64,000 nucleotides of DNA from Blastocystis sp. ATCC 50177/Nand II (taxonomy: Eukaryota). The translations under genes and the position numbers were made by a program. The DNA lies in the NCBI GenBank assembly GCA_039096935.1, contig JBBPEE010000035.1, forward strand, positions 372,001-436,000. The letters are read 5' to 3'. This document shows, piece by piece, positions 16,040-36,030 of this stretch. The notes under the pieces were generated by a model. The model made no database searches and was not told where the DNA came from. It was given only the letters and a program-made list of their open reading frames with translations. The first letter of the stretch is position 1, and each line of letters starts with the position of its first letter.

Positions 16040-18372
<2,333 letters not shown>

Positions 18373-24608: not shown

Positions 24609-25063
24609 TGCGTTCTGGTACGAATTGTTTGTTGCCAGCGTGCGAAAAAGAGTGGGCAAACCAATACCCACAATTTGGGAAAGAAGGGCTGATATGTGGG
24701 AGGGATTGTGGGTGAAATGGGGACAGAATGCTTTAATTTATCATGGAGTTGTGTTTGAAAGAAAGAAATCAGTCAACGTACTTGTACATGGCACCAATGT
24801 CTATTGGTGAAAGAAGGGGTGAAAAGAAGCGACTAATTGTTGTTTTAGGGGTGAAGGAGTGATACAAGACTGGTAGTACTACATTTGTCACATTTGGAAT
24901 ATCTACTTATAACAAGGCTAGAAAATGGTCACTTTCAAGAGTGATGAAATGTGGATTGCTGAATGAGCAGCTATTCTTTGCTTCATTTGTTAATGTGGTG
25001 AGTTTAGGCAAGTCTAATCATTGCTTTCGTTGATAGCACTCACTTTGGATGATCAATTCAGCT

Positions 25064-25071
25064 GTCTTATC
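25064..25071 (+). repeat. Left target-site duplication GTCTTATC
   Basis: Identical to 28571-28578. Confidence 0.85.
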
Positions 25072-25093
25072 CAGAGTTGTCGATTTCTGGCAA
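25072..25093 (+). repeat. Left TIR CAGAGTTGTCGATTTCTGGCAA
   Basis: Reverse complement of 28549-28570 (TTGCCAGAAATTGACAACTCTG), 21/22 identical. Confidence 0.9.
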
Positions 25094-25448
25094 GCCTGAC
25101 ATGAAACTCCCTTGACATGAAGGTGTCAAATTCTGTCAATGGCAATATGTCAAGGATATTTGACAGATTGACATATGGCCCTATTATGGGTTATGTGCTT
25201 TGTTATAACACCCTAAAGTGAAGCTAAGTTCGATCTTCAACAGTACTCTATTGGGTTGACAGATGCAGAAGAGAATAGTCTTTTGATCAAATACTTGGAC
25301 ACCCCAACTGTCAAAATTCGTACAAAATTTGGATAGTCATTTTGCCGTGTTTGTGATTCATGAGCCAGTTTGTATGTTTTGTGTGATAGAATGATTATTT
25401 GTTGAACAAACACTCATCCTGCTGCAGGAAAACGATGATGAACAATTG

Positions 25449-26603
25449 ATGGCCTTCAGCGCTATATACACCACTATGTATAAGTGGGACCATCGCAGGA
25501 GCTGCTGGCGCTACAAGGATAAAGTACCTGACCTGGCAGACAAGTTCCCGAAGGACGTGAATCCGTACCAGTTTGCGGATGTTTTCAAGATCACCTACGA
25601 ATGCTTCGTCGTTCTTGTGGACTGGTTGGTCGAGAAGTGCAATGAGGACCAATCTTGGGATACGCCGTGGAGCAGGTGGCTACACTCTCGTAGATCAACC
25701 AGCATGAGTCCGGAAACAGCAGTGGCGTGCGTCGTTCTTCACCTGTTCACAACAGGGACTTGCGATCGCAATGCTTTCATGCTGGGAGTTCCAGCGTCAA
25801 CGTACTTGCTCATCGCAGATATCTTGACCCTGGAACTGGCGATGAGAGTCTCTGAAGTGATTCGTTTTCCCCCAAAGAAGGACCAAATCTGCATGCGCTC
25901 CAACGAGCTAAAGCAGCCTATGCCGGGAGCCCTGTTTGCGATGGACGGAACCCTCTGTCGGCTTCCACATAGGGGGAAGTACAACGAGTTCGTCAGTCGC
26001 AAGAGCCAGCCCCAGATCAACGTGTTGGTTGTGTGTGACTGGAACAAGAACCTCGTGTACGTCGAGCCTGGGTTTACCGGAAGAACCCAGGACAACGACA
26101 TGTTCAACAACTCGGTTCTTCACGAGGAGATGAAACTGCCGGACTTCCCTCTGAAGGAAGGGGGATACATCCTAGTGGACGAAGGATTTGCCTGCAACGG
26201 CCGAATCATCCGTCCCTACTCGAAGAAGCGAGATGAACTAGACATCCAGTTCTTCAACAAGGTTTTCAAGTCGACACGACTGATTGTGGAGAACGCGATC
26301 GGGGCATGGAAGGAGAAATGCCCGCTGCTGAACATTGGAATGCATGATCAAGATCCAGAGGACCTAACCGTGACGATTCTCGCTTCAGCAGTCCTGTACC
26401 AGTTCTGCAAGACCACAAATGAAGTGCTGGAGAATGTTGACAACTCTGCTTACGAGAAAAAGGCGAAGTTCATCCCACCTGAATTCATTGGACTCAAGGG
26501 TGACGATCTACGTTCGACGATCAAGCTGTACTTGATTGAGCATTACCCAGAGCAGTATCAGAAGTTTGTCAATGAAACTCCAGAAGAGAGAGACCGTTAT
26601 TGA
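25449..26603 (+). CDS. HARBI1-like DDE transposase (DDE_Tnp_4)
   Basis: Uninterrupted ORF with AMDGT, INVLVVCD, GRTQDNDMF, LVDEGF, FNKVFKSTRLIVENAIGAWK; putative catalytic D, D, E present. Confidence 0.9.
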   Translation: MAFSAIYTTMYKWDHRRSCWRYKDKVPDLADKFPKDVNPYQFADVFKITYECFVVLVDWLVEKCNEDQSWDTPWSRWLHSRRSTSMSPETAVACVVLHLFTTGTCDRNAFMLGVPASTYLLIADILTLELAMRVSEVIRFPPKKDQICMRSNELKQPMPGALFAMDGTLCRLPHRGKYNEFVSRKSQPQINVLVVCDWNKNLVYVEPGFTGRTQDNDMFNNSVLHEEMKLPDFPLKEGGYILVDEGFACNGRIIRPYSKKRDELDIQFFNKVFKSTRLIVENAIGAWKEKCPLLNIGMHDQDPEDLTVTILASAVLYQFCKTTNEVLENVDNSAYEKKAKFIPPEFIGLKGDDLRSTIKLYLIEHYPEQYQKFVNETPEERDRY

Positions 26604-26633
26604 AGCAAACATGTTTGTTGAAAACAGGCTAAT

Positions 26634-27991
26634 TCACACAGGAACAATCTGTTCATTGTTATCACTTGGTTCACTCGCAGAGGCAGTACTCGGAGCAGTA
26701 TCCCTCTCACCCAGTTCCTTCTTCTTCAAGTTAAGCTCTTCAATCTCCCTCTCTTCTCTTCTCTTCAGATACTCTCTCTTCTCCTTAAAATACAACGCCT
26801 CCTCATGGCATAGAGCCTCCTTCTCTTTCATGTACTTCTTTCTTTCATCGTCCATGGTAATGCTGCGTTTTGCGCAATTCTCTTGCAAGTCCAGCATTCT
26901 GTTGAAGTACGATTTGTCTGTATTGCGCTTCCTCTTACGTGTCGTAGTTGCTGACTGATACTGCGCATCACTACCACGTGGCTCGGGAAGAGTATCATCC
27001 TGCTCATGAGCATCAGCAGGAACGCGTGTTGAATCCGTTGGATCGGGAGAATCCGATGGATCGGAGGGATCCGGTGCAGCAGATGGAGATGCCAGAAATG
27101 AAGGGAGTGTATCTTGGGTCGGAGCAGGGGCGGCAGGAACAGCAAGAGAAGAAACGCCAAGGATGGGTGAAGGAGAGGGAGGGACATCAGAGCGTGACTC
27201 CTCACTTGGCTGCACAGCCAGCAGCGGAGCATCGGACGGTGTAGTATTCGAGTTTGCTTGGGGAGCTAGACGAGAAGGCTGACTGTTACTGCACCCTGAA
27301 TTGCTTACGAGGAATCCATTCTCCCGCAAATGGTCACATCGCTGTTGGAGGTTAGCGGCAAGGATCGGATTCGTGTTGCGGAACATATTTGGTTGGTTTA
27401 TATCATGATGAACGAATTGGGTTAGAGTCATAGCACCTACAATCAAGAGATGAATCAAAACAAACGCGCATTAACCCTCAGCCAGGCAACAACATTAGTA
27501 TTCACTTGCTACAGTTCACTATCAATAGAAACACCCACCACTCCTTTACGGTGAGTGCTGTTGATCAGTTCATGCAATGCGGCATAATACTCCCTTTGAC
27601 GGGGATCTGGGGGATCCTTACGATCAGCAATGTACTTCACAGCACGCTACAATATAGAAAAGTATCAAGAACTACAGCAGCAAAGTCAACAACCTTTAAT
27701 GTATGCGTGAAGAGAGCATTCAGAGTTCTTGTATCACTGGCAACGAGTTCGTAATCATTCAAAAAGGCTTGCCACTTCCCCTAATCATTATACCCACTCC
27801 CTTGCAAAATCAACCATGTTTGTTTGAAGCTGCTCATCTCTATTCTTATAGCGATTATCACCAAAGCCTAACTCCTTCCATCTTGTTTGAAGAAGATAAA
27901 CTATGGCATCTTCGAGATCCTTATTCCAGTTCTTTCCACGAGGTTGCCGTCCAGATTCAGTGTTATCAGAAGACTGGCGTGTGTTCACCAT
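26634..27991 (-). CDS. Myb/SANT-like DNA-binding partner protein of the transposon (spliced)
   Basis: N-terminal KNWNKDLEDAIVYLLQTRWKEL, short introns, P/S-rich linker, NLS RKRKR, C-terminal coiled coil; matches the Harbinger ORF2 layout. Confidence 0.65.
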
Positions 27992-28548
27992 AGAGGGAAT
28001 CACAAATCTCCCTAAGATGAAACAAAGAAGTGACCGGAAAGGTTTTCACTTTTTGAATCACAAACGAGCATAAAATAGTGACAACTTTTGGAATTCTGTT
28101 TGTGCAAAAAAGGCCTCTTAAGGACGGACACCAGAATTTTGTACAAAATTGGACAGCTAGGGTGGTCAACTCATAGAATTGATTCGATTTATACCAGGAA
28201 CTCCTGATAAGCAGCACAATATGGGATTTGGAGGAGAATCCAGATTGTGCAGACTAAGGGAGAGTGAAGCAGGGTAGAGAAGCCCGACTCTTGGGTATTG
28301 TATTGTTACATTGAATATCAAAGGATCGTTGTCTGCCCATGTATGATGACACTTTGACATAGAGTTATTACTCTATTTAGGGCCTGGGAGATAATAGCAA
28401 CACTACGTGAAGGAAATAAAGACCAGTGGATTATTGTTGTTTGTTAACAACCAACAAAACAAGGCCAGTTCTGGCACTGATAGTGGCAAGTGTCAAAATC
28501 TGTCTGTCATGCTAGTTGACATCTGTCATGTCTGTCAAGAGGCTGGAG

Positions 28549-28570
28549 TTGCCAGAAATTGACAACTCTG
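28549..28570 (-). repeat. Right TIR
   Basis: Inverted copy of 25072-25093. Confidence 0.9.
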
Positions 28571-28578
28571 GTCTTATC
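28571..28578 (+). repeat. Right target-site duplication GTCTTATC
   Basis: Identical to 25064-25071. Confidence 0.85.
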
Positions 28579-31500
28579 GTCATTGAAAGAGAACGCGTCT
28601 TCACCCAGTTGAATGGAAACAAGCTCAGGCAAGTCTATTCGTTATTCATCACTCGAGCAGCAACTCTCAAGGAAAGCAAATAGGCACTGTTTAAACGAGC
28701 TATGACCGATGAGGAGTGACTTCAACTTGGGCAAACCTATTCGTTAGTCCCCTTCCGTAAGACCACTTCTCAGCTCCAATGAAGCAGAAAAGAAGTTGTA
28801 ACTTGGCTCCTTCAAATCCCCAATCTCAATCACTTCCAAGGAGGGAACACTCTCGATTTCACAACGGGAATAATCAGAGAAAGAGAAACGGCCGATTCTC
28901 AGTTCCCTCACTCTCTGGCAGTCCCTCAGCCTGAAGACTCCTTCATTGCTCAAAAAGCAGCTTGTTCCAATCTGAACTCTCTCCAAGGCGTTCACTCCAA
29001 TCATCTCGAACTCTCTAACATGGGCAAAACACTCATTCCCAATATTCAGCACTCTAAGCTGCGTTAACTGATTAATCTTCAGCTCAGTGATGGAATCGTC
29101 AGAGCAAGAGCCACTGGCAACCACAAGGCTCTCGATTGGTCTATTCAAGGCATTGAACTCCTCAATCGAGTGCACGTTTGGATTGGAGGGATTGGTCACT
29201 TCATTCTGTTGGATCGATACTCCCACATCTGTTCATTACTGAAGAGTGAGAGGAGTACTTGAAATAAACACATAAGACGAATTGAAGAACATCATAGGAA
29301 GAACTGAGTTCTTGAGTGAGGGAATGTCTATTGGTTGTTTCAATGAGCAACACTCACTTTCAAGAGTAATGCGATGAGGCCACTTCGATACACCATAATT
29401 GGCCTTGCTTATACGAAGAGTAGCCAGTTTTGGTAAGTCTAATCATGATCTCCCTTCGTGAGACTCACTTCGCATAGTAAACTCCGTCACTTTCTCATCA
29501 GTATGTAAACCAAAGGCTCTATCACCAATTTCAATGGAAGTCAATTCAGGCAAGTCTATTTCTCATTCTCTCTCTAGCTGATTCACTCTCAAACACTGCA
29601 CGGGAACACTCTTCAAATGCCTTATCACCAAACAGAAGTGATTTCAACGAGGGCATGTCTATTCGTCATTTCCTTCCTTGAGAAACACTCTTCAATTCCA
29701 ATGAAGCGAACCAGAAATTGTAACTCTCTTCATCCAATTCTCCCATTTCAATCACTTCCAAAGAAGGCACATTCTCAATCTCACACACGGAATAATCAGC
29801 GAAGGAATGACGACCCATCTTCAATTCTCTCAATCTCTCACAATTCTTCAAATAGAAATGACGACTTGCGCTATACCTACAATTACTCTTATGCTTTGTG
29901 AAACTACCCATGCCAATCACAACTCTCTCCAATTGACTCAATCTAATCAACTTCACTTCTTTCACATAGGAAAACGAATAATAGCCCACTTCAAACACCT
30001 TTAGACTCGCGAAACGCGTCAAGTCAAGCAAAACGAAATCTGTATCGTTGCAAGCATTGTTGTCGACAATAATCGAATCGAAAGTACCACTGCAATTGCT
30101 CCATTCGATTGAGGAATGAATGGAGGCTTCAGGATTGGATGGATGCAAGTGTTCATGCTTTATCAACTCTCCAACGTCTACGAAACACAGCAAAACACAA
30201 CTGTTACTCTTATACTGCAAATCATGACGATCAATGAATGCTTCGGGGAGAGAGACTCGCGTGAGGGAAGGCATATCTATTCAACAATGCAACAGTGGAA
30301 CAATCACCCTCCAGAATGGCATGATGCGGTAAACAGAATGAAGCACTTTCTTCTTCCGTCGTGAGTGTTGAGAGTCTGGGCAAATCTAGTATTCAACAGG
30401 AACATGATCCATACTTCGCATAATCAAATCGGATGAAGCATTCTGGTTGAATCGGAGCGCATGATTGCCTAGCTGAATGGACTCCAACTCGGGCAAGTCT
30501 ATTCATCATCTCCTTTCTTCACAGTGCACTCTCCAACACGACATGCGAACAACGACCAAATGCACTACCTCCGAAGGAGAGTGATCTCAGTTTGGATAAG
30601 TCTATTCATCACTCTCATCAATGGAAATCACTCTTCAATTCAAATGTGGAAGCAAAGATGAAGTTGTCACTTCTCTCTGCATTCCCCATTTCAATCGCTT
30701 CCAAGAGGGGAGTGTTCTCAATAACATATCGCTCATAATCGCAGAAAGAGTGGTAACCAATCTTCAATTCCCTTACCTTCTCACAGTCCTTCATGTAAAA
30801 GCGACCGCGATACTCCCTGTTGAAAATCTCACATTCATCCTCTTTCTCAGTAAAACAATCCTTTCCGATTACCACTCTCTCCAATTGGTGTAATGATACT
30901 AGACTCACTTTATTCACTCTTTTGAAGGATCCATTACCTACTCTCAACTCACGCAACATGCGCAGGAGAGAATAGTCGATCATTCTCCATTCTTCCCCAT
31001 TGCAGCAATAATCACCAACAATCAGCTCCTCTACCATCGTGTGATACAACACGGAACGATAGTTATCCTTATTGATTAGGATGATCTTCCCATCCTCATG
31101 TGTGTTGTTCAACCATCCCCCTTCGTAAATCACAACACCCGTCCGGTCATATTGCGTTCCTCTTCCCCAGCGCTTTCCTTCATAGATCCCGCCTTCATAT
31201 TCAATCACTCCAGTGTCAGAATAGTAGCTTCTTCCATAACACACATTCACATCGCCAATTCGGAATCCCTCAAACACCAGTCTGTTTTCACTGTCATACA
31301 GCACACCCCAACCATAGGGTTGATTATCCAACACATCGCCTTCCCATCTCTCTCCATCGTCACTCAAATCCAACACCTGAGCATGTTCGATTCCAGTCAC
31401 CTCCTCTCCATTCACTTGCAACAACTCCTTTCTCTTTACGTCCACTTCAACACAGTAACCCTTCGTGGTGCTGATGACTGTGGATGGTAGTTCCATCACT

Positions 31501-32671
31501 CCCTCGTAGTACCAACAGGAACCTTCATGATGATGAACAATAAGAAACTGGCTCTTGTTCGTTTCTTTCAAGCACTTCTTGAAGCGTTGCTGACTCTTAA
31601 AGGCGTTAGCTAGTTGAGCCAACACCTCGGAATAGCCGTCTCTCCTGATTCTCTCCACCGACTCCCTTACGAAGGGATGCTACTCATTAACGTCTCACAC
31701 CACACTCACCTCCATCAACTCACTAACTGAAGATCTCTGTTCCATATTGCTCACCAAACACTTCTCCACAAAGCTCTTTGATTCTTCTGACCATTTACCT
31801 TCGGAGAAGTCGGGTTGAAACCGTTTACGCACACAGTCAATGGTAAGCATACCATCATTAAACAACGGGTTCACCCCTTCAACCATCTCAAGCATGGTCA
31901 TGCCCAGAGACCACACGTCATTCTTCAGTTCCTTGGTCAGTTCCACAACATCAGATGATCTGTAGTATGAAATGTTCCATGTGGGAAAGGAGTGGTAAAG
32001 CAGAGACATCATTCCAAAGCCACCCAACTTGACAACTCCATTGTCACACAGAAAAAGGCTATCCGGTTTGATCAACTACGCATTCACTGCTAGAAACAGA
32101 ACCTACACATTCCAGCTTCTTTCTCTGAAGATAGTCCATTCCCAGCAAGCAGCAACTCACGATCTCACGCAGCTCACACTCGGACATCACATTCCCGTTT
32201 CCTTTGAAGGCATACAACGATTCCTTAACTCGCTGCTCTTGTATGATCTACGGCATTACGATTACACTCAACCACTACCCATAATACGTCTTCCTCCCAA
32301 TATATGTCTGCGTAGTTCATGACATAGGGAGAATTGCATTCTTGCATCAACTGGGCCTTAATGCGATCCTCACCGATTGTCCGTTGATTTAGTATTGTCG
32401 TTGCATTGTAATGAATATCAGTGTCAGAATCAACAACTTCAAAGAACTTCATATGCCCTCTAACGCTCAATCGTTCAGTTAGTGCAATACCCATTTGTGA
32501 GTCCAGCCTGCTTATACACAACCCCTGTGCGATGGAGGTGCATGATTCTTCTGTTCCACTGAAGAGAATACTGAGAATCCCTTCCCAATCACATCTGTCT
32601 CCCAAAAGAGTGTACTCATCATCCTCATCCTTCACAGCAAAAGAACAAGAAGACTGCCCACCCAGGAAGTG

Positions 32672-33748: not shown

Positions 33749-36030
<2,282 letters not shown>

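Follow-up and report, generated by a model that had tools for sequence, protein, structure and literature searches.

What has been inserted at positions 25072 to 28570 of the 64,000-nucleotide stretch of Blastocystis sp. ATCC 50177/Nand II DNA analyzed here (contig JBBPEE010000035.1, positions 372,001 to 436,000; hereafter the window): one transposon or two? An earlier note, made from the letters of the DNA, had read this interval as a single recent, probably autonomous DNA transposon. The insertion is real, recent and expressed, but it consists of two elements rather than one. We consider it very probable that the locus is a nested pair, in which a 2873-bp PHIS/Harbinger-type transposon with two genes (25296..28168), likely autonomous and recently mobile, resides within a 623-bp element likely of the hAT type. 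Thus, the recent insertion of an intact and probably autonomous two-gene element stands, while its boundaries and the number of elements had to be revised.

Three states of the insertion site

Contigs from other samples presented the site in two further states. One contig from run X4 joins position 25063 to 28571 and skips 3507 bases, namely the 3499 of the whole insertion plus one 8-mer; such an empty site had been predicted in the earlier note. Contigs from runs X1 and X2, both of one study, join 25292 to 28170 with a single base between, representing the outer element free of its insert, and they carry a variant of the ACT site that flanks the inner element in the window. When the filled and the insert-free outer elements are compared, a net three bases were gained at the inner insertion. 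The X1 contig shows 14 substitutions and one gap over 593 bases, and the X2 contig extends about 410 bases further (an extension not compared with the window flank), which suggests another locus for that outer copy. Runs X6-X13 and X15-X21 did not enter the evidence, and neither copy number nor level of expression was read from contig depth. The three states of the site (empty, outer element only, outer plus inner element) show the order of the insertions and their boundaries.

A repeat search of the window revealed a second, inner inverted repeat (25295-25329 and 28135-28169) enclosing both genes. As delimited here, the terminal inverted repeats of the inner element occupy 25296..25329 (plus strand) and 28135..28168 (minus strand), are 34 bp long and match at 27 of 34 positions; ACT stands directly outside each of them, at 25293..25295 and 28169..28171 (plus strand), as a 3-bp duplication. 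Other copies end at the same places within other flanks. Indeed, a scan of metagenomes with the transposase returned at least 29 loci, and, among the matches listed, four of the 29 belong to the same family as the window element (at least 93%), and the outer parts have no match at any of the 29. Two of the same-family loci extend to the left end, and both begin at 25295; three extend to the right end, and each of them terminates at 28169. The copy at locus L001 differs from that in the window at 7 of 2873 bases (99.76% identity), in unrelated flanks. Near-identical copies at different sites, together with filled and empty states, make recent mobility of the inner element likely. A single copy fixed at its site, which the earlier note had named as counter-evidence, is not what we found: near-identical copies have other flanks, and the site is empty elsewhere.

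Six related families, with transposases 41-51% identical, point to the target. In them, 25 ends were located by eye from their likeness to the repeats. The motif A-N-T stands just outside 19 of these ends (background 5.9%), and run X1 supplied two further A-N-T flanks; a TAA or TTA flank, corresponding to the TWA target of PIF/Harbinger, occurs at none of the 25. The same 3-mer is present on both sides at three of the eight loci with both ends (the window, L003 and L008). Sixteen ends, mostly excluding the outlying ones of the set of 25, could be aligned without gaps and all start with T (TG, TA or TT). Most of these sixteen, across six families, share the block AAC(A/T)GT in register at repeat positions 11-16, a candidate site for the protein encoded by the second gene, hereafter the partner.

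The outer element has no gene of its own. It occupies 25072..25292 and 28172..28570, measures 623 bp without the insert, and its longest ATG frame has 65 codons. Its 22-bp terminal inverted repeats (25072..25093, plus strand; 28549..28570, minus strand) match at 21 of 22 bases, for which about 0.001 chance pairs are expected within 5 kb, the duplication not yet counted. That duplication is perfect, comprising 8 bp (GTCTTATC; 25064..25071 and 28571..28578, plus strand) with ends at 25072 and 28570 or, in an alternative reading, 6 bp with ends at 25071 and 28571. The central TTA of the 8-mer was considered as a classical Harbinger target and rejected, as the ends would then not be inverted repeats. 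Subterminal TGACA motifs are clustered on both sides, seven of them in both orientations at 25097..25173 and five at 28491..28537. The density of TGACA/TGTCA reaches 7 per 100 bp, whereas 200 shuffles of the window never gave more than 4, and the motif occurs 16 times in the 623-bp outer element versus four times in the 2873-bp inner element, where each terminal 120 bp holds one. The features on which the single-transposon reading was built are therefore present, yet the inverted repeats and the perfect duplication are those of the gene-less outer element and not of the transposase. Because the TGACA arrays likewise belong to this separate element and lie outside the inner one, they are unlikely to be the sites of the Myb-like protein for which they had been proposed.

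The same searches brought up further members and fragments of the lineage. Loci L003-L010 and L013-L016 represent at least five more two-gene families, with some ends intact (L003, L008) and others decayed. Transposase matches at L020-L026, from several samples, are degenerate copies of a related family, heavily altered in sequence and strand-skewed, with stops and 28-42% protein identity. An alignment of the L014 relic runs 8 bases beyond the inner left end, which we read as a chance extension. In runs X1, X2 and X4, a joint after 28169 apparently places a copy of the inner family at an ATT site in the 5' region of an element of a related family; other joints and loose ends in these runs (25436-25854, 26313-27147, 25229-28227) point to internally deleted or diverged versions of the inner and outer elements.

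Genes and transcripts of the locus

Run X3, whose listing as RNA is a guess, has the character of RNA: the short GT-AG introns are absent from its contigs and a poly(T) end is present. Its spliced contigs for the transposase and for the partner show that both genes of the inner element are expressed, so that the transcripts by which the earlier note had proposed to check the element exist.

The transposase gene (25360..26603, plus strand) encodes 395 residues and has one intron of 56 nucleotides (25372-25427). As the earlier note had it, an uninterrupted frame (25395-26603) carries the D-D-E signature: it matches DDE_Tnp_4 with an E value of 4.6e-21, and D177, D255 and E292 are the catalytic residues of the spliced protein. 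The X3 contig spans 25428-26603 without a difference from the window, and its 16 loose bases match 25356-25371, from which the intron and the length of the protein follow. Neither of the two spliced frames, transposase or partner, contains an internal stop. DDE_Tnp_4 was matched by all 21 aligned transposases. A profile search of 1.84 billion proteins gave 1609 matches at E values up to 1e-10, with a tight set of close relatives followed by a drop to proteins only 22-31% identical. The transposase profile brought up no relative of solved structure by sequence. Fifteen close relatives, a set defined by score, form one long-branch group relative to unnamed outgroups. Among the proteins that cluster with the transposase and its relatives are some named Blastocystis sp. 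JDR, Nand II and subtype 1. The predicted structure (pLDDT, the predicted local distance difference test, 80.8) has piggyBac and TnsB transposases as its best fold matches, although these are weak (template-modeling score 0.2-0.3) and indicate a DDE fold only.

An in-frame GT-AG stretch of 39 nucleotides (25934-25972; protein P0021) spans the first catalytic aspartate. The 13 residues that correspond to this stretch, D177 among them, are absent from two JDR gene models, and a 39-nucleotide version is present in only two of six families. The stretch may represent an intron, either regulated or cryptic, or else a fault of annotation; splicing there stays a lead only, because the X3 contig is unspliced at 25934-25972.

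The partner gene (26634..27991, minus strand) encodes 401 residues and has five introns of 29-34 nucleotides. The X3 contig lacks all five, and their removal leaves an open 401-residue frame from 27991 to 26634. The protein comprises a predicted Myb/SANT-like N-terminus, a low-complexity middle and a basic, charged C-terminus. Homologues stand alongside the transposase in six of six families, with the same three tryptophans and the same position of the first intron. These tryptophans, together with a final amphipathic stretch, fit the trihelix pattern, and to that extent the N-terminus is consistent with a Myb/SANT-like domain. Alignments of exon 1 found nothing in Pfam or the Protein Data Bank (PDB), and a search with exon 1 gave no match to any protein of greater length, which is weak evidence.

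The two genes converge on a common 3' end (26604..26619) containing a 12-bp palindrome (26606-26617). This palindrome holds the Blastocystis poly(A) motif (PMC5608401) on the plus strand and a copy with one mismatch on the minus strand, both of them putative polyadenylation sites.

Run X3 also records the effect of the insertion on its surroundings. The interrupted gene resembles leucine-rich repeat (LRR) genes and runs on the minus strand. Its upstream part (28571..29232) has a spliced intron at 28635-28664 and a match to LRR_4 at E 0.009, below the cut-off; its downstream part (24761..25063) consists of LRR-like exons with GT-AG stretches of about 30 nucleotides between them, recognized by eye. 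The X3 contig of the host gene (record 17) is spliced at 28635-28664 and enters the outer element without a single difference, supporting the outer right junction. There the reading frame gains about 20 codons before a stop, and the poly(A) tail is attached at 28461, as 26 T residues precede this position, at the edge of back-to-back poly(A) motifs in the outer element (28438..28461). Thus, the insertion shortens the LRR-like host transcript, which now ends inside the outer element. Another X3 contig (28178-28431) stops near the plus-strand poly(A) motif and has no tail; we did not count it. Around the insertion (28744-31679) lie LRR-like gene pieces in tandem, which belong to a large multi-copy family.

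Affiliation of the two elements and competing readings

By its sequence, the inner element is of the PHIS/Harbinger type, with a Pangu-like target and unusual ends that start with T. Its DDE transposase can be aligned within the enzyme family, and a second gene lies within the same inverted repeats. Members of the Pangu group (Harbinger2 in Repbase; PMC4482050, PMC12730594) are described as having, like the inner element, an A-N-T target, two genes, a length of about 3 kb and repeats within 11-40 bp. It is the A-N-T duplication that defines the group, in some members of which DDE_Tnp_4 is accompanied by a Myb-type gene (Han et al. 2015, PMC4482050); these include Pangu_CGig and Pangu_AGla, which with Pangu-2_LDec are the close comparators. 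In contrast to the usual AG or GG of Pangu repeats, all 16 aligned ends of our lineage begin with TG, TA or TT. Unlike most Pangu rows (K.Q...PDG) in Han's Figure S3, the catalytic core of the inner transposase appears by eye to be Nuwa/Harbinger-like (NV..VCD, G.T.D), and its nearest outside proteins, at 22-31% identity, set it apart from Pangu as well. With PIF/Harbinger (Harbinger3_DR, Pong, PIF) and Nuwa it shares a DDE_Tnp_4 transposase of about 400 residues, a partner protein in or near the range of 300-400 residues (with a Myb/SANT-like domain that is predicted in the inner element) and a 3-bp duplication, whereas its target is A-N-T rather than TWA, CWG or C-TNA-G.

The outer element is, by its ends, likely of the hAT type. 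A CAG-type terminus is a feature of hAT elements. The 22-bp repeat, which falls within the 5-27 bp of that type, the duplication in its 8-bp reading and the asymmetric short subterminal repeats, here 12 clustered TGACA motifs, fit published descriptions of hAT elements (PMC4316626, PMC10368747). Like the non-autonomous hATs (Ds-like, mRover1, Mar), it is short and gene-less, has 22-bp repeats and numerous short subterminal repeats in the two orientations, and would share their 8-bp duplication; unlike them, it contains Blastocystis poly(A) motifs at which a host transcript terminates, and no parent was found for it. Three proteins of Nand II are listed with a hAT dimerisation domain (PMC12129017, Table S5). 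Searched in viral and prokaryote contigs, the outer repeat gave no match, a result uninformative on Blastocystis. A preference of the inner lineage for outer-type insertion sites was considered, as a hAT-like end lies 90 bp from L011, and rejected: that end has mismatches at 6 of 22 positions, and roughly one such match is expected in 29 loci.

The following course of events would account for the locus. The gene-less outer element landed first, in a coding exon of the LRR-like Blastocystis gene; it would have been mobilized in trans by another transposase, one that recognizes the TGACA arrays and generates 8-bp duplications. The two-gene transposon then entered it at an ACT site. For Harbinger3_DR and the rice elements, both proteins are reported to be needed, the Myb-like protein binding near the ends and taking the transposase to the nucleus (PMC9710019). 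By analogy with these zebrafish and rice elements, the partner would use its predicted Myb-like domain to bind DNA near the inner ends and would carry the transposase into the nucleus and onto those ends, and the DDE enzyme would excise the inner element and join it to an A-N-T target with a stagger of three nucleotides.

Several observations count against this account. The empty site is represented by one contig (depth 2.76, about 90% identical), which may be a paralogue because it is so shallow and divergent, and none of the listed contigs spans the outer left junction or either inner junction of the locus. At five of the eight both-ended loci the 3-mers differ between the two sides, which we put down, without proof, to short-read chimeras or age; moreover, the 25 ends were chosen by eye from their likeness to repeats, and the sequence would look no different if the duplication were of 1 bp and the element had T and A as its terminal bases, so that a 3-bp A-N-T duplication was adopted by analogy with other PHIS groups. 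All evidence of expression comes from the single run X3, possibly the window's own strain, and the pieces in metatranscriptome X14 are unspliced. Neither exon 1 nor the long exon of the partner, scanned as separate pieces, matched Pfam or the PDB. The hAT label was drawn from the ends of the outer element, no transposase with such ends turned up as its parent, and Table S5 of PMC12129017 shows no hAT dimerisation domain in the JDR annotation. Finally, no new jump was observed.

Could the transposase nevertheless work on the outer repeats, as part of one autonomous 3.5-kb element with 8-bp duplications whose partner binds TGACA? The outer repeats, which also enclose both genes, agree with each other better (21/22) than the inner ones do (27/34), and such an element would be a new PHIS type. 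We hold this to be very improbable, since every other copy listed is bounded by the inner ends, the outer element occurs free of the insert, and related families have inner-type ends flanked by A-N-T; an 8-bp duplication also does not fit the DDE_Tnp_4 enzyme family, whose known groups are described as leaving 3 bp or less (PMC4482050). Still less credible is a domesticated host pair fixed at the site. Short introns and poly(A) motifs of the host type occur in both genes, and some related families have decayed ends, but the empty or outer-only site in other samples and the near-identical copies in other flanks speak decidedly against it.

Two other readings deserve more weight, while remaining rather unlikely. 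One accepts the nesting and holds that the inner family, young and transcribed, is now immobile, being silenced after transcription, for instance by splicing out the first aspartate. The two JDR models without D177, inner repeats that are only about 80% complementary, and broken frames among the relatives accord with such a fate; the unspliced X3 contig, the restriction of the 39-nucleotide version to two of six families, and the near-identical copies at unrelated sites do not. The other reading, to which we attach a similarly low probability, makes the outer element a short derivative of a different superfamily (Mutator, P, Merlin, or a type with 6-bp duplications). A single insertion with both flanks is available and its duplication can be read as 6 bp, Merlin also gives duplications of 8-9 bp (PMC4482050), and ST1 annotations contain two and six Mutator-type transposases while JDR lacks the hAT domain; the combination of ends described above and the three hAT-domain proteins of Nand II favor hAT instead. 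A PHIS/Harbinger-type transposon nested in a likely hAT-type element therefore remains the reading that we prefer.

Implications for Blastocystis

The window contains 27 TGTTTGTT motifs against 1.3 in shuffles, a density near the one per 3.1 kb given for subtype 1 (ST1; PMC5608401), and it is likely of that subtype. With the Blastocystis names among the relatives of the transposase, this bears out the Blastocystis-like genome that the earlier note had recognized. Its premise that such genomes are very poor in transposons, however, is unsupported, as interspersed repeats are put at 4.2-6.7% in human Blastocystis isolates (Lind et al. 2025, PMC12129017); they amount to 6.5-6.8% in ST1, and repeat coverage of the ST7 genome is given as 25% (PMC3129679). 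The available text of the ST1 genome paper holds no word starting with 'transpos' (PMC5608401). Harbinger-type nuclease domains number four in Nand II, eight in JDR and one in ST3 and ST4, and the elements behind them are not described in the available parts of that survey (PMC12129017). In the available parts of Han et al. 2015 (PMC4482050), B. hominis (ST7) appears only among the screened species, with no PHIS family reported from it. We found no Blastocystis DNA transposon described in the literature with its ends, target site and genes, although a Repbase or Dfam consensus may exist.

Elsewhere in the window, the segment 47616-52642 is strongly skewed and contains 96-bp tandem repeats, with an 898-residue minus-strand frame that resembles a coiled-coil protein. 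The same 18-bp repeat, in three copies, occurs at 17551-17604 and 35227-35280, suggesting a duplicated gene.

Nested insertions and Harbinger-type elements with A-N-T targets are both established kinds of biology, and the outer element is an ordinary short element. A bolder view would see in the inner lineage a PHIS radiation of Blastocystis' own, a seventh group that comprises six families or more, whose ends start with T and whose target is A-N-T, still jumping without end-joining repair and throttled by short-intron splicing able to cut the first catalytic aspartate from the message; we regard this as a doubtful proposition. The correction of the boundaries has a practical side, as the inner transposase would not be suited to a construct made with the outer repeats. 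Blastocystis genomes apparently lack end-joining repair (PMC5608401), and tools for integration and loss of function are, according to a 2026 preprint (10.64898/2026.04.28.721505), still to be established. For these reasons, a native and expressed cut-and-paste element is a candidate integration tool for Blastocystis, as well as a candidate source of insertion markers between strains.

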